64,000 nucleotides of DNA, from the NCBI GenBank assembly GCA_038874135.1, contig JAVZCZ010000001.1, positions 751,219 through 815,218 of the forward strand, written 5' to 3'. Under the pieces are notes generated by a model that ran no database searches, had not been told where the DNA came from, and saw nothing but the letters and a program-made list of their open reading frames with translations. The DNA comes from Candidatus Woesearchaeota archaeon (lineage in GTDB: Archaea; Nanobdellota; Nanobdellia; Woesearchaeales; 0-14-0-80-44-23). This document shows positions 1 through 14,600 of this stretch, one piece after another. A program made the position numbers and the translations under genes. Numbering within the stretch: the first letter of the stretch is position 1; the number at the start of each line of letters is the position of its first letter.

Positions 1-3000
1 TGCTCATACTCTTCTAACTACTTGGAAGTGCAGTGCTCAGATGAGCAAGCCTATGGCAATGCCTCTACATATTTTTACATATTTGAACTTCCATCCGTGA
101 ATACTTACGAACCGAACGATTCTGCAATAATAAACTCTTCCTCATTCCAATTTGAATATGAAATTCTGCCAGAATCGTCAGCATACTTAGTTAAAAACTG
201 CGCCCTTATATTAGATGGAACTTCCTGTAACTCTACTGATTTACCTCACAATGGAACAAACAGCATAAGCTGCCCGTTCAGTGAAGGATCTCACACTTGG
301 AAGGTGCTCTGCACACTCATAGGCTCAGGCCAGGAAACTATTGAAAGTCAAGAAAGAGGATTCTTTGCAGATTATAGTCCTCCAAATATAAACCTAATTA
401 ATCCAAACCAGCCCGCTTACAATTCAGATGTTCCCATTGAATTTAACATTACAGACTCTGCCTCTTCATCATTCAATTGCACAATATCCGGCATTCCAGC
501 ACCATTCAATCTCAGCTCACTTGTTTCCTACTCTTCTAAGCTTAACCTTCCAGTAGGAAAATATAATCTAACGATTTCCTGCTCAGATGCTGCTGGAAAT
601 TCTGCATATACTTGGCAAGAATTTGAACGAATAAATCTTTCAGTTTCAACTGACAAAAAATATTATATTCCTATGGAAAATGTGTTTATAACGCTGAACG
701 CTCCTCCTTCCCAAACAAATATCTCAGTTTCAAAAGGCAATTTCACACTGTCCAAAACAACAACTCCACCATATCCAATAGTCTACATCTTCACATCCTC
801 AAACGAGCCTGGAGATTACCTGGTGCAGGCATTTACAACATATAACAACATAACATTCACTGCCAACACCTCATTCTCAGTCAATATAACTAGAAACCTT
901 ACACTTTCAATATCAGCTAACACCACAACAGCTGAGCCCGGAGTAAGAATCCTATTCTATTCTAATGTTTCAGGAAACCTCACTCCTGTTACATACTTGT
1001 GGGACTTTAATAATGATAACCTTCCCGAAAGCAGCCTTCCAAATACCGAATACTCTTTCTCACAGCCTGGAAGATACCTCGTAACTTTAAAAGTGAACGA
1101 CTCATATTCCTCCGCCTCAGCTTCAATAAATATAACAGTGCTCTCCAGAGCAAATTTGAGCATTACAGTTCTTAACAGGCTTGGAGAACCTCTCGCTGGA
1201 GCAAACATCACGCTAGGCAACACATCTGCCATAACCAACTCCTCTGGAGCAGCAGTCATGCAGAATCTGCTTCAAGGCACATACCCTATAAATGTAACAG
1301 CCACAAATTACAATTCGTATTTCAACACAGTGGACATTTCCTCTAACAAAAACATAACAATATATCTACAAGAGCTCACAGAAGAGCCGGAAATCCTAAT
1401 AACAGAACCAACAGATGGTGCTACAATAACATCCCTTCCAATTACAATAAGGTTCAAAGCAAATTTATCATATCCTACAAACTGCACACTATACAAAAAT
1501 GAACAACAATCCTGGTGGGAACAGCTTTCTCAGATGGCTGTTACAAACAACACTGAAAATACCTTGTCAGTAGCCAATCTCACGGACGGGCAAGTTCTTC
1601 TAAGAATCGTATGCACAGATGTATTCGGAAACAGTGGCACCCAACAGATTTCCCTTAACATCAGCACACTACCAAAAGAGCCGCAATATCCAGAACTAGA
1701 CCAGGCAGAAGAAGAGCTCTACACAAAACAGGAATACTACAACAGCATAGGACCAGCACAGCTTGAAGCAGCTCAACTATTAGGTATACCTGATATGCTC
1801 TCAGATGCTCAGAACCGATTAACACTCGCCAGGAGGGATCTCTCAGACCTCTCATATTCAAAAAAGAGCCCGGAGGAAAAAGAAGCAAGAAAGAGTGAAA
1901 TAATATCTGACGCCGTTTCACGAATCAATGCAATTCCAGATTCAATACAGGTGCTATCTTCTTATGAACAGATACACTATCCAACTCAGCAAGAGCTGGA
2001 AAAGGTGGCAGCTCCCTTCATCTCAGCTAATTCTCTGAAGATAGACCAGCGGACATTCCTAAGAGCAAACTCTCCACTTATTGAGCTAATAACAATAAAT
2101 ACAAAAGCGTTTTCAATAGTGCTAAATTATAACGGGGAGAGCCGAGAAGTGTCTGTAATAAAGCACTCTGTACAGCTCAGCCAACAGCTTAACGAATCAG
2201 CAATCTCAAACCTGATGTTAATACTCAATATTCCAAAACAGATAGCTGACTCAGCAGCAGGAATCACATTTATGGACAGGTATGGACAAAAAGTAGTCAA
2301 AGATGATCCAATCTTTTCACTTCCTGTTACAAGCGAAATAGTTTACCAAATAAACAAGAGCATTGATGCAAATTCTGCTTCTGAGATATCACTCCTCTTA
2401 GTAAGCAAGAGTGCTTCAGTTTCAATACCAGGCATATCGGGACTGGCAGTTTCACAGACAAGGTATTCCATCTGGCCTTTCAATCTCATTGGAGGAAAAA
2501 TTGGCTCCAGTTTAGCTATTCAAATAGTAATACTTGTAGTGCTTCTTACCATATACTTAGTATACACCCTTCAGCCGGAAATAATAAGCAGATCAGCAGA
2601 TGCACTAGGAAATCATATCAAAAATCTCAGACCTCGCTCGGAAAATAGGATGAAGCAAATAGTCCATGCTGAGAAGTCAATTCCCACAACACTACAGAAC
2701 AATTTAGCTAGCATGCCGCAGCAACAAACATACTCACCCATTCAACAACAAGTAGTTCCCATAGGGCCTGGAATGCAGCATTCTTACATTGCTTACAGAA
2801 TGCAACGGGCTCTTCAGTTGGCAGAGCAGAACAACTATGAGGAAGCTTCAGCCGCATATTATGAATTAAAATTCCTTTATAACACGCTCAGCTCTCACGA
2901 AAAATCCCTACTTTATCCGCAATTATTAAACCTGGGACACAAGCTTAACATTTCCTATATCAGACAGTTAGTTTCAGAAGCAAAGTTAAAGGTTAATTCA

Positions 3001-3222
3001 GACTACCAAGAAGCCCTTGAACTTTATGATAAGATCTCCAAGGCATACTCACTGCTCCCTACAGAGTTCAAGTATGCAGTGTTCTCTGAATGTCTTGAGC
3101 TTCTAAACATTCTTGAAAGGGCAAGAAAAAACCAGAACAACTCTGAAAATCAAGCAGTAACCTTCAAAAAGAAAAAAAAGAGGTGCAGGTCAAAATCACA
3201 CGCCAAGGCGAGAAGGGCATAA
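1..3222 (+). CDS. 5'-partial bitopic surface glycoprotein: Ig-like/beta-sandwich ectodomain with many N-x-S/T sequons, one TM helix (LAIQIVILVVLLTIYLVYTL), Gln-rich/TPR-like cytoplasmic tail
   Basis: The frame is open from window base 1; the track's TTG 'start' at 22 is not a real start. It has NCxL..G...W.V.C.D repeats of the same family as the giant proteins downstream, a single hydrophobic helix near aa 835, and then no sequons. Its stop overlaps the next gene. Confidence 0.8.
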   Translation, partial: CSYSSNYLEVQCSDEQAYGNASTYFYIFELPSVNTYEPNDSAIINSSSFQFEYEILPESSAYLVKNCALILDGTSCNSTDLPHNGTNSISCPFSEGSHTWKVLCTLIGSGQETIESQERGFFADYSPPNINLINPNQPAYNSDVPIEFNITDSASSSFNCTISGIPAPFNLSSLVSYSSKLNLPVGKYNLTISCSDAAGNSAYTWQEFERINLSVSTDKKYYIPMENVFITLNAPPSQTNISVSKGNFTLSKTTTPPYPIVYIFTSSNEPGDYLVQAFTTYNNITFTANTSFSVNITRNLTLSISANTTTAEPGVRILFYSNVSGNLTPVTYLWDFNNDNLPESSLPNTEYSFSQPGRYLVTLKVNDSYSSASASINITVLSRANLSITVLNRLGEPLAGANITLGNTSAITNSSGAAVMQNLLQGTYPINVTATNYNSYFNTVDISSNKNITIYLQELTEEPEILITEPTDGATITSLPITIRFKANLSYPTNCTLYKNEQQSWWEQLSQMAVTNNTENTLSVANLTDGQVLLRIVCTDVFGNSGTQQISLNISTLPKEPQYPELDQAEEELYTKQEYYNSIGPAQLEAAQLLGIPDMLSDAQNRLTLARRDLSDLSYSKKSPEEKEARKSEIISDAVSRINAIPDSIQVLSSYEQIHYPTQQELEKVAAPFISANSLKIDQRTFLRANSPLIELITINTKAFSIVLNYNGESREVSVIKHSVQLSQQLNESAISNLMLILNIPKQIADSAAGITFMDRYGQKVVKDDPIFSLPVTSEIVYQINKSIDANSASEISLLLVSKSASVSIPGISGLAVSQTRYSIWPFNLIGGKIGSSLAIQIVILVVLLTIYLVYTLQPEIISRSADALGNHIKNLRPRSENRMKQIVHAEKSIPTTLQNNLASMPQQQTYSPIQQQVVPIGPGMQHSYIAYRMQRALQLAEQNNYEEASAAYYELKFLYNTLSSHEKSLLYPQLLNLGHKLNISYIRQLVSEAKLKVNSDYQEALELYDKISKAYSLLPTEFKYAVFSECLELLNILERARKNQNNSENQAVTFKKKKKRCRSKSHAKARRA

Positions 3223-5564
3223 TTTGTGCTCTGCTTTTAGGAATTGTAACTATAATCTTAGGTAGTTATGCCTGCGCTTTGGAATTTTCACCATCTTCAA
3301 TTAACGAAGTGCTTTCTATTAACAAGTTTGTTCAGAAAAACATAACTTTGAAGAATGAACTCTCCTATCCGGTAAGGATTGCTCTGGTGCCCTCTTCTAA
3401 CATTAGCGATTTATTAGACATCACTCCAAATTCTATTGAAATCGGGGCAAGAGAGTCAAAGAATGTTCTGGTTACAATATACGGAAATGTTGATCCTATA
3501 AAATTTATTAATCGCTCGTATTACATCTTTAATGGCTTCATAAAGCTTGAAGGAGCTAACGCTCAAATACCTACGGACTTGATGGTCACTAATGGAACAA
3601 TAAACCTGCCCAGCAGCATGGTGCTTTCAGCATCGGCAGGTAAGGATTATTTCACTAAATCAGAAAATCTCTCTTTTATAATTGTTGTAACGAATCTTAT
3701 GACAGGCTCAAAACCAAATGTTACTCTTTTCTATTATTTCCTAATTGATAAAAACTCAGAAATTCCCGTTGGGAACGATTCCTTCATAATTACTACTTCA
3801 AAATCAGTTGTAAAGGAATTCATACCAATGTCTTCAATACCTGATGGCACCTATACTTTCAGGGTTGTAATGTCTTATGCAGATAAGAAGAGTGTTGCTG
3901 ATGTGCCCTTCAGGATATCAACCCCATTTATATTCAGAACATTCTTAGGTATAGCTGTATGGCAGTATATACTCGGAGTGATTGCCTTAATAATAATTGG
4001 CTTGTTAGTATACTGGCGAAGGAAGCGTGTTTTGGCTTCTCGTCGTTATGGTGTGAGTGTGGATTTGCGTAGTTTTCCTTCTTCTGGTAGGCTTGTGCGT
4101 TTGGGTAAGTTGGCGGAGTATGGGCGTGATTTTTGGTTTGATTTGGATGGTTTGACTACGCATTGTATTGTGGCTGGTGCTACTGGTGGTGGTAAGACTG
4201 TTGCTGCTCAGGTTTTGGTGGAGGAGGCTTTGAAGGCTGGTGTGGCTGTGGTTGTTTTTGATCCTACGGCTCAGTGGAGTGGTTTTTTGAGGCCTTGTTC
4301 TGATAAGGGTATGTTGTCTTTGTATTCGGGTTTTGGGTTGCGTCGTTCTGATGCTCGGGGTTTTCCGGGTAATGTGAGGCAGGTGTTGGATGCTCGTGAG
4401 GTTTTTGATGTTAGGCGTTTTATGCGTCCTGGTGAGATTGAGATTTTGAGTTTGAATAGGTTGAGGCCTGAGGAGATTGATGTTTTTGTGGCTAATACTG
4501 TTAGGAGCGTGTTTGATGCGGGTTTGGATGAGTGTCGTGAGTTGAGGTTGTTGTTGGTTTATGATGAGGTGCATAGGTTGTTGCCGCGTTTTGGCGGTTC
4601 TGGTGAGGGTTTTGTGCAGATTGAGAGGGCTTGTCGTGAGTTTAGGAAGTGGGGTGTTGGTGTTGTTTTGATTAGTCAGGTTTTGTCTGATTTTGTTGGT
4701 GAGATTAAGGCTAATATTAATACTGAGGTTCAGATGAGGACTCGTGATGAGGGCGATTTGGAGCGTATTCGTGTTAAGTATGGTGATGCTTATCTTAGGG
4801 GTCTTGTGAGGGCTAGTGTGGGTACTGGTATGTTTGAGAATCCCGGTTATAATGGTGGTCGTCCTTTTTTTGTTAGTTTTAGGCCTTTGTTGCATAGTGT
4901 GGTTCGTTTGTCTGATGCCGAGTTGGGTGAGTATAATAGGTTGAATGGGGTGTTGGATGATTTGGAGTTTTGGATTGGCGAGTTGGAGCGTTTGGGTGTG
5001 GACGTGTTTGATTTGAGGTTGGAGTTGAAGTTGGCTTGGGATAAGTTGAGGGTTGGGGGGTTTGGGATGGTGGATGTTTATGTTGAGGGTTTGAGGCCTC
5101 GCGTGTTGGGCGAGTTTGAGCGTTTGGGGAGGCCTGTTCCTAAGCGTGAGGTTAAACGCCTTTCAGATGAGGAGCTTGCAAAGCAGAGGAAGCTGGCTGA
5201 GCAGAGCCGTGCAGAGTTTATAAAAAAGATGGGCATTAAAGAGCAGCAGTCCAAGCAGGAGGAAAAGAAGGAAGAACACATCGTGCAGCCTTACACTTTT
5301 GATAATGGTGCAATGGTTTCGGAGCTTAAGGAGTTGAAAGACGCTATAGAACCTATGAGTGCTGACATCCTCAGAAGCGCGTTGAGTGGAAACAATAAGC
5401 TTTCTGATTGGATAAAGAATGAGCTTAAGAATGAGCAGCTTGCCTCTGAAATTGAGAAGGCGAAGACGAAAAAGGAGATTCTTGATGCAATAACTGCTGA
5501 ACTTGATAAAGCAGAAAAGAGCAGTGAGAAATCTGGAACTGATAAAGGCCAAAAGTCTAAGTAG
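3183..5564 (+). CDS. Receptor-ATPase 1: signal/anchor, ~250-aa glycosylated ectodomain (two beta-sandwich domains), TM helix, cytoplasmic HerA/FtsK-superfamily (DUF87-like) P-loop ATPase, C-terminal adaptor domain
   Basis: GTG start with K/R n-region then a hydrophobic stretch. Sequons occur only before the TM helix (GIAVWQYILGVIALIIIGLLVYW). Walker A is AGATGGGKT, Walker B is LLLVYDEVHRL, and VVLISQ is a sensor-like block. The C-terminal ~65 aa match the HVNFERND-type domain of ORFs 26656..27150 and 35335..37869. Confidence 0.85.
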   Translation: MQVKITRQGEKGIICALLLGIVTIILGSYACALEFSPSSINEVLSINKFVQKNITLKNELSYPVRIALVPSSNISDLLDITPNSIEIGARESKNVLVTIYGNVDPIKFINRSYYIFNGFIKLEGANAQIPTDLMVTNGTINLPSSMVLSASAGKDYFTKSENLSFIIVVTNLMTGSKPNVTLFYYFLIDKNSEIPVGNDSFIITTSKSVVKEFIPMSSIPDGTYTFRVVMSYADKKSVADVPFRISTPFIFRTFLGIAVWQYILGVIALIIIGLLVYWRRKRVLASRRYGVSVDLRSFPSSGRLVRLGKLAEYGRDFWFDLDGLTTHCIVAGATGGGKTVAAQVLVEEALKAGVAVVVFDPTAQWSGFLRPCSDKGMLSLYSGFGLRRSDARGFPGNVRQVLDAREVFDVRRFMRPGEIEILSLNRLRPEEIDVFVANTVRSVFDAGLDECRELRLLLVYDEVHRLLPRFGGSGEGFVQIERACREFRKWGVGVVLISQVLSDFVGEIKANINTEVQMRTRDEGDLERIRVKYGDAYLRGLVRASVGTGMFENPGYNGGRPFFVSFRPLLHSVVRLSDAELGEYNRLNGVLDDLEFWIGELERLGVDVFDLRLELKLAWDKLRVGGFGMVDVYVEGLRPRVLGEFERLGRPVPKREVKRLSDEELAKQRKLAEQSRAEFIKKMGIKEQQSKQEEKKEEHIVQPYTFDNGAMVSELKELKDAIEPMSADILRSALSGNNKLSDWIKNELKNEQLASEIEKAKTKKEILDAITAELDKAEKSSEKSGTDKGQKSK
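4021..5176 (+). repeat. Copy 1 of an exactly duplicated 1156-bp cassette encoding the complete cytoplasmic HerA/FtsK-like ATPase module
   Basis: It is identical to 8201-9356 at a constant offset of 4180. The embedded antisense ORFs 4005..4895 and 8191..9075 translate identically. Identity begins immediately after the TM helix codons and ends at ...KRLSDEEL. Confidence 0.9.
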
Positions 5565-5740
5565 ATTTCTTATACCTTAACCAACAATGTGGTATTTATA
5601 AACTTAGATTACTTAGTATGCATTTATACACATACACTATTTGTGTCACATTTAAAAATTAGTATATAAAATGAAAATATTTATATATCAATATACATAT
5701 TTAGTATGAGTTTGTATTCAAAGACCTTGAAAAGGCTTTT
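5565..5740 (+). promoter_or_regulatory. AT-rich intergenic promoter/operator region upstream of the RHH pair
   Basis: A TATA-like AAAATTAGTATATAAA lies near 5655-5670. TTAGTATG/TAGTATA motifs recur three times (about 5620, 5655, 5701). This is the only sizeable non-coding gap inside the 26-kb gene string. Confidence 0.45.
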
Positions 5741-5752
5741 TTGGGACCCGAA

Positions 5753-5941
5753 ATGCGCAGTACGCCTGAGAAGCATGGCTCAAAGAGAATAACCATAACC
5801 ATAAGCAAGGACCTTTTAGACTTCTTAGATTTAGCTGTGGAGAACAGGCTGTTCGCAAGCAGAAGTCATGCACTTGAAGTCTTAGTAAGGCGCAGGATGG
5901 AGTTTGAGAATGAAGCAAAGAATTACAATTACATTGGATAG
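5753..5941 (+). CDS. Ribbon-helix-helix (CopG/Arc/MetJ-like) DNA-binding protein; alternative TTG start at 5741
   Basis: KRITITISKDLLDFLDLAVENRLFASRSHALEVLVRR is a beta-strand of alternating hydrophobics followed by two helices, the classic RHH layout. An AT-rich promoter-like region lies upstream. Confidence 0.65.
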   Translation: MRSTPEKHGSKRITITISKDLLDFLDLAVENRLFASRSHALEVLVRRRMEFENEAKNYNYIG

Positions 5942-6101
5942 TGAATGCCTGGCATGGGTTGATGAAAAGGTAAAGAATAGAAGCTTTGCTAATCGGAGCC
6001 ACGGCTTTGAATTTTTAATAGCGCGATTCAAGGAGCGCCAAGAACTTCAGAATCTTCTCAACTCGCGAAATTCAAAGGAGGAAGACTTAAAACATGAATA
6101 A
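5910..6101 (+). CDS. Second ribbon-helix-helix protein, tandem paralog of the previous one; ATG at 5910 preferred over the track's TTG at 5904
   Basis: QRITITLDSECLAWVDEKVKNRSFANRSHGFEFLIARF matches the RHH pattern. It overlaps the upstream RHH gene by ~32 nt, and its stop overlaps the ATG of the downstream ATPase gene (ATGAATAA). Confidence 0.65.
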   Translation: MKQRITITLDSECLAWVDEKVKNRSFANRSHGFEFLIARFKERQELQNLLNSRNSKEEDLKHE

Positions 6102-9100
6102 AAATCCTACCTTCAGGATACTGGAACGGGACAGGCAGCTGGAAAGGAGAAGACAGCAGCTGTACATCCTATTAGGCATCTTAGGAGTTTTACTAGCAGT
6201 TGGTGTTATACTTCTGATAAGAATGTTCATAGGATACGCAGTTCTGGAAAGCAGGGCTGGCACAATAACACAACTTAATATACAGCTCAGATACTCAACA
6301 CACATATGGGCTGGATTTTACGGATTGGCATTCCGCGTTCCCGGATACACTGAGCAGCAGTCTGCAGTTGCAGTCGGCGGCACAGTCTTCTTGCAGCACT
6401 TAGTATTTGACTGCTTAAAAACTACAGACGGCAACATTCCTGAGGTATATGCCAGTACTTCAAGAAACATTGACTGGAATTCACTCCAGCCAGCAACTCC
6501 AGACTTGATTGACAGCTACCTACAAGTAGATCCTTCAGATATAACCTCTGCTTCAAACACATTTACAGAAACAATGTCAATACTCTTAGGAGACAGAGAA
6601 ATCACAAATATTGCTGCAACGCACACCAAAAAGTTCGGAGTTCCGGACAGCACGGACTTTGATATAGGCTTCTTAAAAGATTCGTTGGGAAATCTCGTAT
6701 TTGTAACCCATGTAACTCCAACTTATACCAAAGGATTTAACAACCAAACTATAAACTACCAAATGCTCCTTCCAGTACAAGCAGGAACAGCTCCAGTATA
6801 CTACTTCTTCTCAGACCCATATGACGAGTGCCAAGCAGGGCTTGAAGCTCTCAAAAATGCTACCATATTCGGAAGAGCCATAGACAATGCAACAGGCCTT
6901 CCACTTGAAAATGTTACAGTTAATCTTCATACTGCTACAGTTCTTACCAACTCTACAGGAGACTATTACATAGCAATATTTAACGGCACCTACACCCTAG
7001 TAGCTTTCAAGCCGGGATATTACACCTTTGTTGCAACAAACATCACTCTCCCAGCTGACAATCTGTCTACACCTCAATCTGAAAATATTGTCGAATTTAA
7101 TATATCCCTCATTCCCAACCCTGGAAACCCAACTGGACTCGGAAACCTAACTGGCACTGTAACTGATAAAGACTTCGGAATACCCCTCTATAATGTAACA
7201 GTGTATGTAAACGGCAGAATCGCTAAGACAAACATTACAGGCCAATACCTACTTGAACTGCCAGCAGGAAATCATTCTCTTATAGCAATGAAGGAAAACT
7301 ACAGAACATACTACACTCCAAATGTAACTATACTGCCTGGAAACACCACTGAATTTAATTTCAGTATGGAATATGCAGAGCCAGAAATAAAAGAAACTCC
7401 TGGATATCCGCTAAATACCTTCGTTTCCAACCTACTCAAACAGGCAGTGCAGAGGCCTCAAATAATACTCACTCATAAGATTGATACAAAAGAGATATTT
7501 GAAACATTAAAAGTTGGCTCATATGTCCAGCGCTCATTCAATATAACGAGTTACAGGCCTGCCGAGTCCAAAGTTGAGTTTGAAGTCATAGGAAGTGCTG
7601 CACAGCTGGTAAAGGTTGACAAGAGCAGCTCAATAATACCTCCAAGGGGTGCAGAAAACTTCACCCTTACAATTCTAGCCAATGTGCCTCCAGGCATATA
7701 TACCGGAACATTCCTAATCAAAGGAGACCTTGAAGACAGAATCCCGATAAAGATAGTTGTTTATGAGAAGGATAGACTTCCAATAGAGGCTCTTCTCCTA
7801 GAAGTAGTGCCAATAAAAAAGATAATCAGCCCAGGAGAACTATTTGAATATAAGGTCAGCATGACAAACCTGCTGAGGGACACCCCATACAACATCACCC
7901 TTTCATACAATATCACCTCGCGCTCTTCAAATCTTACTATTCCCGTTGAAGAAGAGACGAGACTCTTGGAAACTCAGCTTTCCTACCTTAAGTATTACAA
8001 GCTTCCCAAAGACCTGCCAGAAGGAGAATACTTCCTTGAAACTAGAGCGGAATTCTTAGAACTATCAACAAACACAAAATCGCTATTCATAGTTAAGAAG
8101 CCAATTTACATGTATGCATTATTCGGAATACTTCCCCTCTGGCAGCTTTTCATAATAATAGTTTTCACCTCCCTCATGACCTTCGCAGGATTAATGTATC
8201 GGAAGCGTGTTTTGGCTTCTCGTCGTTATGGTGTGAGTGTGGATTTGCGTAGTTTTCCTTCTTCTGGTAGGCTTGTGCGTTTGGGTAAGTTGGCGGAGTA
8301 TGGGCGTGATTTTTGGTTTGATTTGGATGGTTTGACTACGCATTGTATTGTGGCTGGTGCTACTGGTGGTGGTAAGACTGTTGCTGCTCAGGTTTTGGTG
8401 GAGGAGGCTTTGAAGGCTGGTGTGGCTGTGGTTGTTTTTGATCCTACGGCTCAGTGGAGTGGTTTTTTGAGGCCTTGTTCTGATAAGGGTATGTTGTCTT
8501 TGTATTCGGGTTTTGGGTTGCGTCGTTCTGATGCTCGGGGTTTTCCGGGTAATGTGAGGCAGGTGTTGGATGCTCGTGAGGTTTTTGATGTTAGGCGTTT
8601 TATGCGTCCTGGTGAGATTGAGATTTTGAGTTTGAATAGGTTGAGGCCTGAGGAGATTGATGTTTTTGTGGCTAATACTGTTAGGAGCGTGTTTGATGCG
8701 GGTTTGGATGAGTGTCGTGAGTTGAGGTTGTTGTTGGTTTATGATGAGGTGCATAGGTTGTTGCCGCGTTTTGGCGGTTCTGGTGAGGGTTTTGTGCAGA
8801 TTGAGAGGGCTTGTCGTGAGTTTAGGAAGTGGGGTGTTGGTGTTGTTTTGATTAGTCAGGTTTTGTCTGATTTTGTTGGTGAGATTAAGGCTAATATTAA
8901 TACTGAGGTTCAGATGAGGACTCGTGATGAGGGCGATTTGGAGCGTATTCGTGTTAAGTATGGTGATGCTTATCTTAGGGGTCTTGTGAGGGCTAGTGTG
9001 GGTACTGGTATGTTTGAGAATCCCGGTTATAATGGTGGTCGTCCTTTTTTTGTTAGTTTTAGGCCTTTGTTGCATAGTGTGGTTCGTTTGTCTGATGCCG

Positions 9101-9636
9101 AGTTGGGTGAGTATAATAGGTTGAATGGGGTGTTGGATGATTTGGAGTTTTGGATTGGCGAGTTGGAGCGTTTGGGTGTGGACGTGTTTGATTTGAGGTT
9201 GGAGTTGAAGTTGGCTTGGGATAAGTTGAGGGTTGGGGGGTTTGGGATGGTGGATGTTTATGTTGAGGGTTTGAGGCCTCGCGTGTTGGGCGAGTTTGAG
9301 CGTTTGGGGAGGCCTGTTCCTAAGCGTGAGGTTAAACGCCTTTCAGATGAGGAGCTGCAGAAGGAAAAGGAGATTGCTATGCAGGAACATGAGAAAGCAA
9401 AACAGCAGGAAGCAGGACAAACTTCACAAAATTCAGATTCCAAGACAGAAACTTCCCAAATTCAAAACACAAAAGTTGAAGAGCAGCCCAGCCAAAATGA
9501 AAAGGCCGAGAACCAAGAGAATGCAAAATCCTCAAATGAAAATAAAATTAAAAGAGTAAGGGAGGGTAAAAAGCAGAGGATGAGGAAATCAGCAAGTTCG
9601 GAAAAAAATAATAAAAAAAGAGGTGCTAAAAAATGA
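6094..9636 (+). CDS. Receptor-ATPase 2: N-terminal signal-anchor, ~640-aa glycosylated ectodomain (two carboxypeptidase-regulatory-like domains plus two membrane-proximal beta-sandwich domains), TM helix, cytoplasmic HerA/FtsK-like ATPase identical to that of ATPase 1, K/E/Q-rich low-complexity tail
   Basis: RRRQQLYILLGILGVLLAVGVILLI is the anchor. GRAIDNATGLPLENVTVNLHTATVLTNSTGDYYIAIFNGTYTLVAFKPGYY and a second similar unit are CarboxypepD_reg-like. The second TM helix is LFIIIVFTSLMTFAGLMY. Nucleotides 8201-9356 are identical to 4021-5176. Confidence 0.85.
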   Translation: MNKNPTFRILERDRQLERRRQQLYILLGILGVLLAVGVILLIRMFIGYAVLESRAGTITQLNIQLRYSTHIWAGFYGLAFRVPGYTEQQSAVAVGGTVFLQHLVFDCLKTTDGNIPEVYASTSRNIDWNSLQPATPDLIDSYLQVDPSDITSASNTFTETMSILLGDREITNIAATHTKKFGVPDSTDFDIGFLKDSLGNLVFVTHVTPTYTKGFNNQTINYQMLLPVQAGTAPVYYFFSDPYDECQAGLEALKNATIFGRAIDNATGLPLENVTVNLHTATVLTNSTGDYYIAIFNGTYTLVAFKPGYYTFVATNITLPADNLSTPQSENIVEFNISLIPNPGNPTGLGNLTGTVTDKDFGIPLYNVTVYVNGRIAKTNITGQYLLELPAGNHSLIAMKENYRTYYTPNVTILPGNTTEFNFSMEYAEPEIKETPGYPLNTFVSNLLKQAVQRPQIILTHKIDTKEIFETLKVGSYVQRSFNITSYRPAESKVEFEVIGSAAQLVKVDKSSSIIPPRGAENFTLTILANVPPGIYTGTFLIKGDLEDRIPIKIVVYEKDRLPIEALLLEVVPIKKIISPGELFEYKVSMTNLLRDTPYNITLSYNITSRSSNLTIPVEEETRLLETQLSYLKYYKLPKDLPEGEYFLETRAEFLELSTNTKSLFIVKKPIYMYALFGILPLWQLFIIIVFTSLMTFAGLMYRKRVLASRRYGVSVDLRSFPSSGRLVRLGKLAEYGRDFWFDLDGLTTHCIVAGATGGGKTVAAQVLVEEALKAGVAVVVFDPTAQWSGFLRPCSDKGMLSLYSGFGLRRSDARGFPGNVRQVLDAREVFDVRRFMRPGEIEILSLNRLRPEEIDVFVANTVRSVFDAGLDECRELRLLLVYDEVHRLLPRFGGSGEGFVQIERACREFRKWGVGVVLISQVLSDFVGEIKANINTEVQMRTRDEGDLERIRVKYGDAYLRGLVRASVGTGMFENPGYNGGRPFFVSFRPLLHSVVRLSDAELGEYNRLNGVLDDLEFWIGELERLGVDVFDLRLELKLAWDKLRVGGFGMVDVYVEGLRPRVLGEFERLGRPVPKREVKRLSDEELQKEKEIAMQEHEKAKQQEAGQTSQNSDSKTETSQIQNTKVEEQPSQNEKAENQENAKSSNENKIKRVREGKKQRMRKSASSEKNNKKRGAKK
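8201..9356 (+). repeat. Copy 2 of the 1156-bp ATPase cassette
   Basis: See copy 1; it is a direct repeat in the same orientation. Confidence 0.9.
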
Positions 9637-10457
9637 AGTCAAAAAAATCAGTTAAGTATAGAGCGAGAGTTCACAATAAGGCTAACTCAAGCAAGAAAGA
9701 TTTGAGAAAAAAGAAGGTTCGCATTGAGAGAAAAAATAGCACTAAAACAATTAGTAAAGAAACATCACCTAAAAAATCCAAAGCTTACTTAAAAAAGCGA
9801 TTTGGCAAGATTGATAACAGAGTTATTAAAAATAAAAATAATAAAGTAAAACCAGGAGCTTTAAAGCACAGAAAAAAAGAGAAGAAGCAGAATGTTCAAA
9901 AAAGAAGAAAAGCAATGCAAAAAAAGCCAGCGCCTGAAAACGCAGCCGCAGCAACCAACCAAGTACAGACAAATACGACTTCAACAGCTCAGCAGGCAAA
10001 TTCTCAAATTGAAACACATTCAGATGTGGAAGCGCTTCAAAAAGAATACTCAGATATCAACAGCTATCTGGTTCAGCGAAGAAAAGCGGGAGTTGACACC
10101 TTCATACAGGAACTGAAACTTTTTTCAATACCGTCAAAAATTCAGCTTTTAAAGGCAGAATACTCAAAAGATTATGCTGACAAGATTAGAGTTCAACTTA
10201 ATGAGATTAGAGAAGAGTTAGAAAAAGCAGAACCTCAACCGACCCCCCTTGACCTTCCTAAAGTTCAGCCGAACCAGCCGAATCCATTCTCAGAGCAACA
10301 GCTCACAAGTCAGAATAATAATCATCCCTTAACGCAGGATGCAGAAAACTATTCAAAAGAACTAGCTGAGAAGCGCCTTTCAAATAAAATAAAAAATTCT
10401 CTGAGAAATGCTTCCAAAAAAGTTATGTCCATATTCAAAAAAGGAGGTGGAAATTAG
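9633..10457 (+). CDS. Lysine-rich basic protein (histone H1-like low-complexity N-terminal half) with C-terminal coiled-coil region
   Basis: Its ATG overlaps the upstream stop (ATGA). The N-terminal ~100 aa are about 35% K/R (KKSVKYRARVHNK...KKEKKQNVQKRRKAMQKK). The C-terminal part has heptad-like periodicity. Internal alternative-frame ORFs (9296..9559, 9892..10116) are artefacts of the A-rich sequence. Confidence 0.6.
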   Translation: MKSKKSVKYRARVHNKANSSKKDLRKKKVRIERKNSTKTISKETSPKKSKAYLKKRFGKIDNRVIKNKNNKVKPGALKHRKKEKKQNVQKRRKAMQKKPAPENAAAATNQVQTNTTSTAQQANSQIETHSDVEALQKEYSDINSYLVQRRKAGVDTFIQELKLFSIPSKIQLLKAEYSKDYADKIRVQLNEIREELEKAEPQPTPLDLPKVQPNQPNPFSEQQLTSQNNNHPLTQDAENYSKELAEKRLSNKIKNSLRNASKKVMSIFKKGGGN

Positions 10458-11615
10458 ATGTTCAACCTTTTCAAACGGAAAAACTCTGAAGAAGTTCCCA
10501 ATCAACAATCAGCTAACGAAGATCTGACAGCTCCAGCACAAACCCAGCAAACTGCTACTACGCAAGGACAGGAAAACCTCGCTGCAGAATTAATGAAGAT
10601 TAAGGCAGAAGTGGAAGCATTTTCAGATGTAAGAAAAGCCACAAATGAGAAACTTACAAGACTAAGCGAGCAGATTGGAGAGCTAAGAGCAATGATTGCA
10701 GACAGAGACAAGGTGATGAATCAGATAGAGGTTAAAGCTACAAAGGCAGCAGATCTCGTAGCCACAGTTAAGCCTGAAGAGCAGATGGTAGAAATAAAGC
10801 GTCAGGATGCAAAACTTGAAGCGTTTAAAGCATCTCTGGAGAGCAATGAACTTTTGATGAAGAGAGTTTTAGACGAACTTAAAGAGATGAGAACAAAGAT
10901 AGCTTCCTTCCGCGGAATTGAGGAACTAATCAACCTTAACAATGAAGTAAAATCTGAAATAATTGAAATAAAAAAGGTTGAAGCAAACATACAAAAGCAT
11001 GCAGACAAGGTAGAAACGATATTTGCAGAGGTTCAGAAAAGATTCGTTGACTTTACAAAAATTGATGATAGGATAGCATCCAACACGAAGCAAATAGCAG
11101 AGCTATCAAAGAACTTGGACGGAGTGAAGGCAACTGCCTCGGCAGCAGCCACAAAAAAGAGTGTAGATGAACTAACTTCCAAATTCTTAGAAATGAAAGA
11201 CCAACTCTCAGAACTGGTTTCAACAATAAACAAGCGCCTCTCCTTAGTGGAGAAGAACAATTCTGCAGCATTTGAAGCTTTTGAAAAAGCGATAATGCAC
11301 AAGTTTAAACTTTCAAAAGAGGAAGTAGCTGTATTTAAAGAGCAAGTACAGCAGAATCAGCAAGCCCAGCCAACTCAGCAAATATCCCAGCCGCAGGATG
11401 TCTCTCAAAAGAGCAATACTCAAGAGCAAAATCTTCAGACCAGTGAAGCACCCGAAGCTCTACCACAGCCGCAAGCCTCTCAGCAGGTTCAGCAGCCGCA
11501 GAGTGAGCCAAATGAGCAAGACTCAAAAAAGCCTGACAGCAGCATTCAGAAAGAGATAAGAGAAGCAGCCAAGTTTGCTAAAAGGATAAAAAGCAAAAAA
11601 AGAAAGAAGAAATGA
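10458..11615 (+). CDS. Long coiled-coil protein with Gln-rich ends and K-rich C-terminus (scaffold/filament-like)
   Basis: It starts directly after the upstream stop. The central ~250 aa have a continuous heptad pattern (ELMKIKAEVEAFSDVRKATNEKLTRLSEQIGELRAMIADRDKV...). It has no TM segment. Confidence 0.65.
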   Translation: MFNLFKRKNSEEVPNQQSANEDLTAPAQTQQTATTQGQENLAAELMKIKAEVEAFSDVRKATNEKLTRLSEQIGELRAMIADRDKVMNQIEVKATKAADLVATVKPEEQMVEIKRQDAKLEAFKASLESNELLMKRVLDELKEMRTKIASFRGIEELINLNNEVKSEIIEIKKVEANIQKHADKVETIFAEVQKRFVDFTKIDDRIASNTKQIAELSKNLDGVKATASAAATKKSVDELTSKFLEMKDQLSELVSTINKRLSLVEKNNSAAFEAFEKAIMHKFKLSKEEVAVFKEQVQQNQQAQPTQQISQPQDVSQKSNTQEQNLQTSEAPEALPQPQASQQVQQPQSEPNEQDSKKPDSSIQKEIREAAKFAKRIKSKKRKKK

Positions 11616-14600
11616 ATAGCTCCAAATTTTTCAAACTAATAATTTTAGGGTTTATAATAGTGGTAGGTCTCCTAAGCCAGTCAAAAGCAGACAGCATCCA
11701 AGCAGTATATGGCAATACTCAACTCATACTCACAGACAAGCCGCAGTACACTTTGGGAGAAAGTGTAAAGATAAACATACTAATCCCAACACAACTGCTT
11801 TCAGGAATGAATGTTGAAATAGATACCCCTGCTAGCAGATACCAACTTCTTGATTCAAATCTTTCAGAAGTATACTTCACTCCACAGCAAGAGGGAAACT
11901 ATACTATTAAAATATCTTCAGCAGCTGGGAATTTAATATCATCAACTTCTTTTTTAGTACTAAGAAAATCTGAAGTTGAAATTCCCTCATCAGATAGCAC
12001 CAGCCCCAAATTGTCTGCAAAAAACTGGAAGGGAAATTATCAAAAAATACTAAGACAGGAATACCTACCTGCCAACAAGAAGCTTTCAATAGAATTCTCA
12101 GAACTTTCAATACAGAAGATTGATTTTTACAATGTTTCAAATCCGAATGGAGAACTGAAAATAGAAGATGTGCCTCTATCTTATGTTGAAAACTTTTCAG
12201 GAAGAGCAGCGCGCTCATTTGCAATAGACCCAACTTTATTAGAATTTACTTATGCTGAAATTTACTTTACTGCAACTGCCAACGAGCTGTGGAAGTGCCG
12301 CGAATACGACTTCTCAACTAGAAGCTGCGCGGGAAGATATGTAAAAATAATGGACACCATTCCGGGCAGGCAGTATATCTTACACCTCACCAAAGAGGAT
12401 CCTCTCTACACAGAAGTATGGAACAATATAACCTGCACCTGCCAGAATACAGGCCCAAATAACGGCTGGGCATACTGCGAGGTATTCTGTCCGGTCAACA
12501 TTCCAATACCAACAGACGCTTTAGATGGATTCATTCAGATACTAGGCTATAATGTCACCATCACTACATCCTACCCGGCAGGCGGGTACATCACGCCTAA
12601 TTCTGGAATGCACTACGGCTTCTTTGATAGGGACCAGCTGAAAAGCAACGGAAACGAATCCCTAATAGGCTATGTGGCTTATGATGGCCCCGGAACAACC
12701 ACTCAGCTCATATACAACACCAGCATGGCACCGTCTGGAGCATATGCATTTAACAGGGCAAACTGCCCGACTTGGACCTCAGGATACTGCACCTGGTATG
12801 TATTTCTCAACTCAACTGCAAAGAGCAGCAAGGTTAAAAGGCCTGTGACTGTTAATATAACTCTTAATAGCATAAACTGGACTTGGAATTATACAACCCC
12901 TGCGCCTTCAAACATTACAATAAACCTTACAAGTCCAGCAGACAATACTGCCCTCGGATTTAGAAATGTGAATTTTTCCTATATTCCCATTTCAAGTTCT
13001 CCAGTTTCAAACTGCAGCCTTTTTATAAACATTACAGGTAGTTGGAATGCAGTTGCCACAAGCTACTCAATACAAAATAATTCTGTCAACAGTATAAATT
13101 ATACTCTTTCTAACGATGGCGAATACCTCTGGAATATCAGGTGTTATGCTGGAGACATCAGCAGTTTTGCACTATACAACAGAACTCTAATAGTTGATAC
13201 CGCACCCCCTTCAGTCACACTTCTTTCTCCTAACAATAACTCATTTTCTAACACATCTATAATCTCTTTCATTTACAATGTGAGTGACAACTTTAACATT
13301 GCTAACTGCTCATTAATACTGGACAATGTTCTAGTTGCAACTTCATACGCAGTTACTAAATATGTCCCGCAGAATATTACCTACGCGTTATCTAATGGCG
13401 TCCACAACTGGAGCATAACTTGTTTTGACTTTGCAGGCAATTTTAACATTTCCGAAAGTAGGATCATAAATATATCCGCAGTACCTACCATCTGGGACAG
13501 AAGGTGGTATGAAACTTCAACATCAGATTATACCTCTACAGCAAACATTTCTCTCGCAAATTTAAGGGACTCAACAGAAAATTCCATATCCGTTTCAGTT
13601 CCAGTTTCAACATCTTACACCCTTGTAGATGCGATTTCTCCATACATTGGAAGCAACGGGGCATTCGTTCCCAAAGGCACAAATGTATCTTTCAGCGGAG
13701 AATTCTCTACCAGCCCAAATGCAAAGGGAGTTATAAGCTGGTTCTTATACCAGACTGAGGGTTCAACAAAAAACCTTCTCTGTAATTACGGAAATGGCGG
13801 CTCGCTAGGCGCACCCATCTCATCAACAACAACTGCAAGCTGCACTATACAAAATGACACTCTAATGCTCCCAACAAATAGATTACAACTTATTATAATC
13901 TACTATAACAATTTCAAAAATTTAGTGTCTGTAACCCACTATTGGGATGGCACTAGGCTCTCGTTCGTTGAATTTTCAAACTTTACTACCTTAGGAACAT
14001 TAAGCGTTGACCTCTCCTATCCAGACACGGATATAACAGTGGGCCAGAACGAACTGTTCAATATGAGCTGCACAGTTAACTGCTCAGGAGGAAGCTGTCT
14101 TAACACACTCGTCTATGCACAGTATAACACGAGCTCAACGGCATTCACCAACATAGGAAGCTCCGGAAATCTCATTCTTAACACTGGAGAGACAAATCCC
14201 CATTCTCTCGGGAATATCAACCAGAGCTACACTACAACATTCTTAATAAAAGGAAACCTTGCATCAACAAACAACATAAGATGCGTAGCAGTTTCAAACT
14301 ATTCAAACGCTACAGGCCAGATTATAAGAAGGGTAGTTGTGGGGGACACTACGCCTCCAACAGTAAGTCTTGGAAATCCAGCAAACTTTTCTTGGCTGAA
14401 GAGTAAAACAGTAACAATCTATTACACGCCCTCAGACAACAGCGGAATTACTAACTGTTCAATATACTTGAATGATATTTTGAATTATACTCTTAATTCA
14501 GTTCCGAACGGGATTGAGCAGAACTTCACATTCCATAATCTTTCAGACGGACTTTACAATTGGACTGTAGCATGTACTGACAATTCGGCACTAACTACCA

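Follow-up and report, generated by a model that had tools for sequence, protein, structure and literature searches.

Domain-limited concerted evolution and G/T wobble bias of the motor domain in two tandem membrane-anchored HerA/FtsK-type ATPase genes of a Woesearchaeota archaeon

The window, a stretch of 64,000 nucleotides from the Candidatus Woesearchaeota assembly GCA_038874135.1, opens with a cluster of genes on the forward strand for membrane and surface proteins. The open frame of the first cluster gene (1..3222, +) starts 326 nt upstream of the window, and its product comprises a signal or TM segment, a glycosylated ectodomain of about 910 aa with PKD and CarboxypepD_reg domains, one TM helix and a helical cytoplasmic tail of about 220 aa. 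The gene is also located upstream of the shorter of two ATPase genes in the relatives L030, L031 and L029. This shorter protein, ATPase-S (3183..5564, +; 793 aa), consists of a TM helix (aa 13-31), an ectodomain of about 225 aa, a second TM helix (aa 257-278), the ATPase and a tail of 129 codons. An AT-rich intergenic spacer with TATA-like runs (5565..5752), as read from the sequence, presumably contains the promoter of a second transcription unit. The latter would begin with small ORF 1 (5753..5941, +; 62 aa) and small ORF 2 (5910..6101, +; 63 aa), whose stop codon overlaps the ATG of the longer ATPase gene. Their Pfam RHH_1 matches (15.2 bits, E 0.02, model positions 1-36 of 39; 13.7 bits, E 0.06) cover the whole model at scores below the cut-off of 20.5, and the two ORFs likely encode a ribbon-helix-helix regulator and a ribbon-helix-helix protein, respectively. 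Small ORFs are present at the equivalent position in L028, L030 and L031. ATPase-L (6094..9636, +; 1180 aa) exhibits a TM helix (aa 24-42), an ectodomain of about 640 aa with two CarboxypepD_reg domains and an S-like membrane-proximal part, a second TM helix, the ATPase and a low-complexity tail of 93 codons. Translationally coupled to it are the genes of two cytoplasmic lysine-rich coiled-coil proteins of 274 and 385 aa (9633..11615, +), whose homologues also come after the L gene in L030, L031 and contig C47 of the same-genus assembly G001. They are followed by two giant secreted surface proteins of 2346 and 2612 aa (11612..26487, +) with Big_7, Big_13 and CARDB domains and with 132 and 127 N-glycosylation sequons, respectively.

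Judged by their sequences, S and L belong to an uncharacterised DPANN (Woesearchaeota-type) family of HerA/FtsK-superfamily ATPases that are anchored in the membrane by two TM helices. Their membership in the FtsK-HerA superfamily of P-loop ATPases is documented by Walker motifs, Pfam scores above the gathering score (DUF87, 37.8 bits, cut-off 23.2; HerA_C, 37.4 bits, cut-off 22) and a HerA-like fold. The Walker A motif GATGGGKT is present, its G57, G60, G62 and K63 columns are invariant across 70 homologues, and Walker B (D186/E187) is nearly invariant in the same set. The full S protein gave no usable single-sequence AlphaFold model (pLDDT 42), and an alignment-based model of the ATPase was substituted for it. 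This AF2 model of aa 276-690 has a pLDDT of 91, and its top Foldseek match is HerA (4d2i, E 2e-11); the HerA profile matches with E 8e-15, with TM-scores of the fold matches of only about 0.48. The two ectodomains had been described as unrelated in the sequence-only reading, but S aa 39-285 aligns to L aa 467-708 with 25% identity (E 3e-10), so that the whole S ectodomain corresponds to the membrane-proximal portion of its L counterpart. Across the family, ectodomains of about 250 to more than 6000 aa are combined with the same motor.

HerA, the hexameric archaeal DNA translocase known from end resection with NurA (PDB 4d2i, 9x1m) and from Sir2-HerA and DUF4297-HerA defence, has the Walker A and B motifs in common with S and L and is their best sequence and fold match. 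However, S and L lack the N-terminal HAS barrel, they start with a TM helix and ectodomain instead, two TM helices flank a large extracellular domain, and no NurA, Sir2 or DUF4297 partner is encoded nearby. HerA proper, the DSB-repair helicase, was rejected on these grounds, on family scores far below the cut-offs (NF040937, 34.6 bits versus 800; NF040819, 25.3 versus 970) and on a neighbourhood of surface protein genes rather than nurA, mre11 or rad50. The coupling proteins and translocases VirD4/TrwB/TraD, TcpA, FtsK/SpoIIIE and EssC (type VII) resemble S and L in their N-terminal TM pair followed by a cytoplasmic FtsK-HerA motor; TcpA, FtsK and EssC are among the fold matches, and TrwB, TraD and CedD give weak Pfam or NCBIfam matches. 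All of these family scores are nevertheless below cut-off, and the inter-TM loop of coupling proteins measures a few residues compared with 225 to more than 6000 aa in the S/L family. A type IV coupling protein was thus rejected (TrwB_AAD_bind, 18.7 bits versus 20.5; T4SS-DNA_transf, 16.3 versus 20.1; TIGR03743, 30 versus 366), as only the topology of two TM helices plus motor is common and the cluster harbors giant Ig-like surface proteins in place of a relaxase, VirB4 or other T4SS or T7SS genes. The same applies to the Ced DNA-import ATPase CedD, whose model NF053655 (cut-off 600) matches a mere 46 residues flanking the P-loop with 32 bits.

Both termini of S and L are predicted to be intracellular, with a large extracellular loop between the TM helices. 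The HerA-like motor module probably forms a ring beneath the membrane, and since the motor modules are identical, S and L subunits could be mixed in one ring. We infer that this ring is part of a surface apparatus that is encoded together with the giant adhesin-like proteins. The widespread DPANN family, in which a variable ectodomain is joined through the membrane to a HerA-type motor and tandem S/L pairs are common, often beside giant surface proteins, is a candidate for cell-cell interface machinery. Our literature search on this ATPase family in DPANN found nothing specific, and a paper on Thermococcales Ig modules mentions no ATPase.

Nucleotides 4021-5176 and 8201-9356 (both +; copy 2 inside the ATPase-L gene) are identical base for base over 1156 nt, with a start-to-start spacing of 4180, and this exact identity, the central claim of the sequence-only reading, was confirmed by direct comparison. 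The match is not extendable by even one base at either end, the ungapped identity of the flanks (0.2-0.3) is random, and the cassette occurs exactly twice in the whole genome of 909,956 bp. In both S and L the identity sets in at the basic stop-transfer residues directly past the second TM helix, in agreement with the proposed start just after the helix; its end lies 129 codons (S) and 93 codons (L) ahead of the stop codons, which corrects the previously claimed distance of about 30 codons.

Exact repeats that exceed the read length are a classic source of assembly error, and G001 indeed breaks at the cassette: contig C8 ends 81 nt into it, contig C47 begins just past it, and the cassette itself is absent, as expected for an unresolvable repeat. 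One ATPase domain might thus have been duplicated artificially, or two diverged ones collapsed or polished to identity. Logan contigs of two public runs from a single hot-spring study (X1, X2) speak against both variants. The cassette forms its own contig of 1156 nt in X1 and 1153 nt in X2, where copy 2 has a T for G three bases before its end and the identical tract is shortened to 1153 nt. All four junctions were recovered in these independent de Bruijn graphs, i.e., separate entries from the S and L ectodomains and separate exits to the S and L tails. With depths of 113 versus 57.7 and 56.6 for the flanks in X1 and of 92.1 versus 33.9 and 32.9 in X2, the cassette is about twice as deep as its flanks and approximates the sum of the flank depths. 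Furthermore, near-identical cassettes in the same arrangement of two genes are present in three more assemblies, which come from other studies. Within the reach of short-read graphs, the concern that one copy might be artificial is refuted, and its residual probability is negligible. The middle segment has 1.26 and 1.48 times the flank depth in the two runs, an excess that is a hint only and that strain mixtures could produce. An invariant cassette depth equal to flank plus middle predicts 129 and 83, whereas 113 and 92 were observed; the contig depths give an inconsistent picture of copy number and are too noisy for calling amplification.

The comparison with relatives documents the history of the two genes. 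In the ectodomain tree, S of this genome, L028, L030 and L031 form one clade (99/97) and L of this genome, L030 and L031 another (99/99), whereas in the ATPase tree the copies pair by genome, either as identical sequences or with support of 100/99. The ATPase domains of more distant S/L pairs in G029 and G036 also pair by genome. Nucleotide identity of the ATPase part amounts to 96.9-100% within and 72-86% between genomes. The S/L split hence predates the split from the three syntenic relatives, and each of the lineages has overwritten the ATPase-coding part on its own. The tracts are discrete, with lineage-specific ends: 1156 nt without mismatch in this genome, 1246 nt with 2 mismatches at the 5' edge in L031, a 1066-nt exact core within a 1194-nt region of 96.9% identity in L030, and a mosaic in L028 whose final 127 nt before the contig end are identical. 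Their 5' border coincides with the junction of TM helix and cytoplasmic part to within about 10 codons, and pairing cannot extend further upstream because S and L share only about 25% protein identity there. These findings bear out the earlier proposal of recent gene conversion confined to the cytoplasmic ATPase module, and the orthologous loci of syntenic relatives show near-identical cassettes with shifting borders. With high confidence, we regard the locus as a case of ongoing concerted evolution by repeated intrachromosomal gene conversion between two old tandem paralogues of a DPANN-specific, HerA/FtsK-type ATPase. The conversion would run through the homologous-recombination machinery of the cell on direct repeats 4.2 kb apart. 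A diversity-generating retroelement or retro-conversion was rejected, since the 99.4%-complete single-contig genome has no RVT_1 match while control genomes gave matches.

Concerted evolution has been described for bacterial and archaeal paralogues such as duplicated tuf genes and rRNA operons (survey in PMC6053082), and TLR1/TLR6 represents a domain-limited case of gene conversion (PMC2077338). The S/L locus shares with the known examples that paralogues within a genome are closer than orthologues between genomes, that tracts have sharp borders and mosaics, and that direct repeats can recombine with deletion of the DNA between them. It differs in that conversion is restricted to a single domain shared by two multi-domain membrane proteins and recurs in three or more lineages, and in a near-total G/T wobble bias that is coextensive with the tract. 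In a probable archaeal symbiont with a reduced genome, the locus offers a clear natural instance of concerted evolution limited to one domain.

This bias affects 374 of the 386 third codon positions of the cassette (97%), compared with a genome mean of 0.486 (binomial P 4e-99). Its 5' border is the identity border in this genome and in L031; in L030 it begins about 10 codons before the exact core, where homology of lower identity starts. It is confined to the clade with homogenised cassettes, and 17 ATPase domains from more distant relatives lack it. Between genomes, 64-89% of the third-position differences are G/T swaps, which indicates that the bias is continuously maintained. The protein composition has been shifted from I to V, K to R and T to A, with I decreasing from 7.5 to 2.2% and K from 10.6 to 3.6%, and V increasing from 6.1 to 12.8% and R from 4.3 to 11.7%. 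We found no description in the literature of a G/T wobble bias coextensive with a conversion tract, and nothing specific on repeat-linked strand bias. Such a signature on conversion tracts connects recombination with strand-specific mutation and with protein composition.

The same combination is found outside of the motor genes. A second exact repeat of 656 nt connects the gene of the 2612-aa surface protein (19969..20624, +) with that of a 752-aa secreted protein (30160-32418; repeat at 30550..31205, +), and its third positions are 98% G/T. Flanking homology of lower identity adds about 130 nt at either end, resulting in a 915-nt alignment that is 91% identical as a whole, and the G/T bias does not reach beyond the exactly identical part. 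Since this segment is extracellular in both proteins, the suggestion that the pattern is special to a "constant engine" beneath variable receptors is not supported, and its cause looks like a repeat process at the genome level. Five of the about seven repeat families in the genome (at least 150 nt, 90% identical), i.e., four others besides the cassette, are biased towards G/T or, in mirror image, towards A/C. In a second genome, 4 of 10 repeats are similarly skewed versus about 1% of the background windows. The skew is not automatic for every repeat, as some near-identical repeats of G041 are unskewed (e.g., 981 nt at 99.6% with a keto fraction of 0.41). Under a polarity rule, the keto-rich strand would point, in the 5' to 3' sense, away from the single Orc1/Cdc6 gene. 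The five strong islands of this genome and the three testable repeats in G041:C1 obey this rule, but 8 of about 20 weak islands violate it; the weak islands are 60-codon windows of at least 0.85, many of which correspond to low-complexity or hydrophobic regions. With this limited support, the relation to replication polarity is a lead for strong, repeat-associated islands only. Keto- or amino-rich windows at 24.6k, 165k, 169k and 293k of the genome were set aside as membrane-protein or lysine-rich regions, which reflect a different phenomenon.

The composition of the converted tract suggests a transition pressure that acts asymmetrically on the strands, with A to G and C to T changes on one of them, and that would have driven the wobble positions to G/T and altered the protein. 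Deamination of A and C in single-stranded DNA characteristically leaves a strand depleted in A and C and enriched in G and T, and strand-asymmetric deamination is exemplified by the H strand of vertebrate mtDNA and by the GC and TA skews of leading and lagging strands. Our best guess is that the repeat strand would be repeatedly single-stranded or re-synthesised in recombination or replication-gap repair, and that the exposed strand would suffer deamination or G.T-mispair errors. Poor repair of such lesions is proposed because no UDG or Endonuclease_5 (EndoV) gene was found in the 99.4%-complete genome. The process would be reminiscent of the mtDNA type in its one-strand exchange of A/C for G/T; unlike mtDNA and replication skews, it concerns only segments of 0.2-1.2 kb inside genes and about 100% of their wobble positions. 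Fungal RIP also targets duplicated sequence, but it hits both strands and destroys the copies, whereas here the genes are intact and the copies identical in an archaeon without known RIP machinery. The resulting GT-rich strand would be of the type preferred by RecA-family recombinases and could reinforce conversion; a preference of RecA for TGG/GT-rich DNA is indicated in PMC3763553. Deamination, polymerase error and selection for GT-rich DNA are inseparable with the present data. Tentatively, and with somewhat less than even chances, we suggest that long-lived near-identical repeats in this hot-spring DPANN lineage undergo a repeat-specific strand-asymmetric transition drive, possibly on the lagging-strand template, that is coupled to homologous pairing or gene conversion and leaves the copies identical and intact. 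If true, such a drive would push all wobble positions to G/T (A/C in the opposite gene orientation) and recode the motor protein. It would be a non-destructive archaeal equivalent of RIP or of deamination as in mtDNA, or else a GT-rich hotspot of recombination that reinforces itself.

Recombination that underlies conversion would sometimes resolve as a crossover, by which the unit between the repeats is deleted or amplified; deletion would yield a chimeric ATPase with S ectodomain and L tail and eliminate the RHH genes and the L ectodomain. L029 corresponds to L031 minus exactly one repeat unit of 4455 nt in assemblies that are 99.97% identical, and it encodes an intact chimera of 842 aa composed of S ectodomain, cassette and L tail. 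Deletion through repeat recombination in nature is plausible, and the formation of a chimeric receptor-ATPase, which had been anticipated from the direct repeats, is borne out in principle by this difference. The related natural population would accordingly contain the chimeric deletion product. The L029 deletion could be an assembler path through the repeat.

The near identity of the two motors might alternatively result from one very recent event, either a gene duplication or a transplantation of the ATPase module followed by an ectodomain swap. A sharp border at the domain boundary would be its natural outcome as well, and the range of ectodomains on one motor attests domain shuffling in the family. 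However, three other genomes contain orthologues of both ectodomain types, which together with the conserved synteny including the small ORFs shows that both genes are old, and the lineages were homogenised independently of each other, with tract ends and mosaics that differ between them, so that we rate a single event as highly improbable compared with recurrent conversion. Selection on the protein would preserve identity if S and L had to co-assemble in one hexameric ring, in which case the codon bias would be unrelated. HerA-family ATPases act as hexamers (PDB 4d2i, 8zis and others), and the motors of tandem S/L pairs group by genome even at 67-81% nucleotide identity. Yet a functional constraint does not require identity at synonymous sites, the second exact repeat resides in extracellular parts of two proteins of unrelated length, and the coincidence of bias and identity borders argues for a shared cause at the DNA level. 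Co-assembly as the source of identity is a minor possibility.

The proposal of a dedicated switch for phase or antigenic variation, alternating between S plus L and one chimeric receptor or amplifying the unit, fared less well than conversion. It could draw on the intact chimera encoded by the sister assembly of L031, on the greater depth of the middle segment as a weak hint of amplified or excised units, and on the surface exposure of the encoded proteins in a probable symbiont. In Neisseria pilE/pilS and Borrelia vlsE, the variable part is exchanged from silent cassettes. These systems likewise combine surface proteins, repeats and recombination that yields chimeric genes; here it is the constant part that is homogenised, each variable ectodomain is single-copy, and a whole-genome search for cassette copies found no silent cassettes. 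Moreover, no deletion joint was seen in the contigs of runs X1-X3, the deletion form is known solely from the comparison of two assemblies of a relative, the neighbourhood of the locus showed no site-specific recombinase, the deletion permanently loses the L ectodomain and the RHH genes and is not obviously reversible, and other repeats show the same identity and bias without an apparent switch. A selected switching device is therefore unlikely. An origin of the G/T wobble in selection on RNA or translation (optimisation, mRNA structure, RNase escape) or in an open antisense gene is very unlikely, even if the bias is extreme and shared by four diverged genomes and the islands are spanned by open antisense frames of 294-310 aa. 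All 100-codon windows of at least 0.85 fall within the listed islands and no other gene is biased, presumably not even the highly expressed ones; codon positions 1 and 2 and the amino-acid make-up are shifted too, and the A/C-only wobble in the coding strand of other repeats is not predicted by a cause that acts on the coding strand or mRNA. An open antisense frame needs only three sense codons to be avoided, not all A- and C-ending ones. The antisense frame at 4005..4895 (-), with its twin at 8191-9075, is by its codon arithmetic a by-product of the bias without sign of being a gene: sense codons ending in G or T give antisense codons that begin with A or C and are never stops. Such G/T wobble islands create long spurious antisense ORFs and call for caution in annotation.

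The two HerA/FtsK-superfamily ATPase genes lie in a cluster whose members are all encoded on the + strand, with stops and starts that mostly overlap. The first gene (to 3222) encodes a surface protein with PKD and CarboxypepD_reg domains and a cytoplasmic tail. It is followed by the short gene ATPase-S (3183-5564, 793 aa), an AT-rich spacer, two small RHH-like ORFs (5753-5941, 5910-6101), the long gene ATPase-L (6094-9636, 1180 aa), two cytoplasmic coiled-coil or lysine-rich proteins (9633-11615) and two giant secreted proteins with Big and CARDB domains (2346 and 2612 aa; 11612-26487), which contain 132 and 127 N-x-S/T sequons for N-glycosylation. Further downstream (27454-33636), all genes start with signal-like hydrophobic segments and lack a Pfam match. 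In both ATPases, two TMs, the first of them N-terminal, bracket an extracellular domain, and the ATPase module follows the second TM. The C-terminal ~60-70 aa of the ATPase-S tail (5178-5564) match DUF7118 (E 0.0014) and DUF5752 (E 0.016) weakly, the latter being precomputed on many L-type family members; the ATPase-L tail in the window is pure low-complexity K/E/Q/N.

The ATPase-coding cassette is letter-identical over 1156 nt in ATPase-S (copy 1, 4021-5176) and ATPase-L (copy 2, 8201-9356). The tracts are spaced by 4180 nt; the match breaks off at the very next base on either side, and the ungapped identity of their flanks (0.2-0.3) corresponds to the random level. Exactly two copies exist in the whole genome (one contig of 909,956 bp, 99.4% complete), both at the DNA and at the protein level. 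Sequence comparison and the Logan contig graph thus confirm the identical pair described in the sequence-only reading, while two of its details require correction: the identity ends 129 (S) and 93 (L) codons before the stops rather than ~30, and the supposedly unrelated ectodomains align between aa 39-285 of S and aa 467-708 of L (25% identity, E 3e-10).

The suspicion of an assembly artefact was evaluated with Logan contigs from runs of one hot-springs metagenome study, which were placed on window positions 3000-8200. The cassette forms a contig of its own in both well-covered runs (1156 nt in X1, 1153 nt in X2). In each of them one contig runs into it from the ectodomain-S side, one starts in tail-S, crosses the intergenic region and ectodomain-L and leads back into it, and one exits on the tail-L side. 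The depth of the cassette is 113 in X1 (left flank 57.7, middle segment 72.1, right flank 56.6) and 92.1 in X2 (33.9, 49.4 and 32.9). Two entries, two exits and an about doubled depth are the graph of a true two-copy repeat, which rejects an artefact as far as short-read contigs can tell. The depth of the middle segment, 1.26x (X1) and 1.48x (X2) that of the flanks, gives no more than a hint that units are amplified or excised, as depths are noisy. At position 9354, three bases short of the tract end, copy 2 has T for G in X2 (2023 sample). The identity therefore spans 1153 nt in that sample, compared with 1156 nt in both the 2024 sample and the reference, and so the tract end differs between samples.

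Three syntenic relatives were recovered (L028, L030, L031). On the JGI contig L028 both copies have common derived states relative to our genome; their last 127 nt before the contig end are identical and the upstream part is a mosaic. The cassettes of L030 (ENA contig) are 96.9% identical over 1194 nt with an exact core of 1066 nt, and L031 (GCA_049700835.1) exhibits a tract of 1246 nt with two mismatches, both at the 5' edge. Between genomes, the cassette identity is only 72-86%. In the tree of the membrane-proximal ectodomain, the S sequences of our genome, L028, L030 and L031 form one clade (support 99/97) and the L sequences of our genome, L030 and L031 another (99/99), whereas in the ATPase-domain tree the copies pair by genome, being identical or supported by 100/99. 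The ATPases of two more distant genomes (G029, G036) also pair by genome (100/99), with a DNA identity of only 68-81%. This conflict between the trees indicates an old duplication whose identity has been renewed repeatedly by gene conversion. The earlier claim that conversion is confined to the ATPase module is borne out, since ectodomains group by orthology and ATPases by genome, and judged from these phylogenies the process is recurrent and limited to this segment. The 5' border of identity coincides with the TM/cytoplasm junction, within ~10 codons depending on the lineage, because the sequences upstream are too dissimilar to pair. The cassette itself is missing from the same-genus assembly G001: contig C8 stops 81 nt into it (6134-6214) and contig C47 begins just past it (~10977), in a tail that is like the S tail and unlike the L tail of our genome, with a homologue of the 385-aa gene next. 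Assemblies usually lose an unresolved repeat in this way.

The most surprising feature of the cassette, missed by the sequence-only reading, is its wobble position. The base composition is A 15%, C 10%, G 37% and T 38%, and 374 of 386 third codon positions are G or T (97%; A 1%, C 3%; genome mean 0.486; binomial P 4e-99). Leucine is encoded by TTG in 43 of 48 cases, glutamate always by GAG (31/31) and arginine by CGT or AGG in 43 of 46 cases; TTG and CGT are rare in the rest of the genome. In both genes, the bias sets in with the first identical codon, and it fades where the identity ends on the 3' side. Its 5' border is likewise the identity border in L031, where all third positions of copy 2 are G/T, and in L030 it spans the homologous cassette with an onset ~10 codons before the exact core. 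It is limited to the clade whose cassettes are homogenised, namely our genome, L028, L030, L031 and the sister assembly of the latter, L029; 17 ATPase domains of more distant relatives lack it and have an ordinary composition. Third positions differ between genomes in 22-30% of cases, and 64-89% of these differences are G/T swaps, showing that the restriction is maintained and not a frozen accident. First and second positions have lost A and gained G, thereby shifting the protein composition (I 7.5 to 2.2%, V 6.1 to 12.8%, K 10.6 to 3.6%, R 4.3 to 11.7%; T, M, N, H and Q reduced). Antisense open frames of 274-310 aa on the - strand of the biased islands (4005-4895, 8191-9075, 19867-20799, 30460-31284) were rejected as genes, because G/T-ending sense codons yield antisense codons starting with A or C, which are never stops; gene callers are likely to mis-annotate them.

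The genome contains nine repeat pairs of about seven families (at least 150 nt, at least 90% identity), and five families, the ATPase cassettes among them, show a bias. An exact 656-nt repeat (19969-20624, 30550-31205) within the genes of the 2612-aa and a 752-aa secreted protein has 98% G/T in third positions. Homology of lower identity extends ~130 nt further on each side (915-nt alignment, 91% identical), but the bias does not reach beyond the exactly identical part. A Cys-rich secreted protein of 777 aa, encoded 5-7 kb upstream of the window (genome 743997-746327), likewise contains internal repeats with G/T third positions. In two families of giant-protein repeats (genome 343.7-346.9 kb and 672.0-672.5 kb), the third positions of the coding strand are exclusively A or C, and this mirror image argues against coding-strand, mRNA or translation explanations. 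None of the remaining genes of the genome reaches this bias, which is a property of repeats and not of this ATPase. Strong skew is also seen in 4 of 10 repeats of a second genome, that of the relative G041 (three contigs), compared with ~1% of background windows; some near-identical repeats there are without skew. The G/T-rich strand of strong islands always runs 5' to 3' away from the sole Orc1/Cdc6 gene. In our genome this gene is located at 588.6 kb, where the cumulative GC skew peaks, and in G041:C1 at 112 kb, at a skew minimum. Weaker islands have mixed polarity, so this rule is a lead rather than a result.

The comparisons show a strand-asymmetric pressure towards A to G and C to T changes that is confined to converted tracts. 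One repeat strand might repeatedly become single-stranded, or be re-synthesised during recombination or replication-gap repair, and would thereby collect U from deaminated C and hypoxanthine from deaminated A, or errors due to G.T mispairs. These changes would be fixed because neither a glycosylase nor EndoV removes them, and each would be passed to the other copy at the next conversion. In the 99.4%-complete single-contig genome, no match was found for reverse transcriptase (RVT_1), the UDG superfamily (PF03167) or endonuclease V (PF04493), and one ordinary cytidine/dCMP-deaminase-family gene is present. RecA-family recombinases prefer GT-rich single strands according to PMC3763553, and on this basis the tract may become an ever better recombination substrate. 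A G/T-only wobble that is coextensive with conversion tracts and recurs in other repeats appears to be undescribed.

On either side of the locus, L029 (GCA_049969735.1) matches L031 with 99.97% identity, yet exactly one 4455-nt unit is missing from L029. Its sole ATPase (842 aa) combines ectodomain-S, cassette and tail-L, and the small ORF and the L ectodomain are absent. This natural one-unit deletion matches the chimeric ATPase predicted from repeat recombination, although the deletion form could also be an assembler path through the repeat. The further proposal of a programmed or reversible switch found no support, and phase or antigenic variation is plausible but unproven. Given identical motor modules, S and L subunits could mix in one sub-membrane ring, which would belong to an apparatus presenting giant adhesin-like proteins on the surface of a probable symbiont.

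Both ATPases match DUF87 and HerA_C above the Pfam cut-offs; the HerA, CedD, TraD and TrwB family models all score far below their own cut-offs. A profile of 70 homologues, in which Walker A and Walker B are conserved, finds HerA as best structure match (E 8e-15), and an alignment-based AF2 model (pLDDT 91) is closest to HerA 4d2i (E 2e-11), followed by TcpA, FtsK and EssC. An exhaustive search retrieved 361 family clusters (50% identity, E < 1e-30). The motor forms the C-terminal end in all of them, N-terminal parts range from ~100 to >5600 residues, and open frames of relatives reach 11,830 aa. Dominant size classes are ~770-800 aa and ~1200-1370 aa with CarboxypepD_reg, and tandem pairs are frequent among same-order relatives. 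Named members are hypothetical or DUF87 proteins of 'Candidatus Woesearchaeota / Pacearchaeota / Nanoarchaeota', ESM Atlas clusters are 'hypothetical protein' from Nanobdellota, Altarchaeota and Aenigmatarchaeota, and our literature search retrieved no paper describing the family. On contig G029:C41 (locus L016), where L precedes S, a 296-aa ORF (3723-4613) lies between the two genes. It weakly resembles the N-terminal ATPase region (28% over query residues 34-183) and is perhaps a remnant or a truncated third paralogue.
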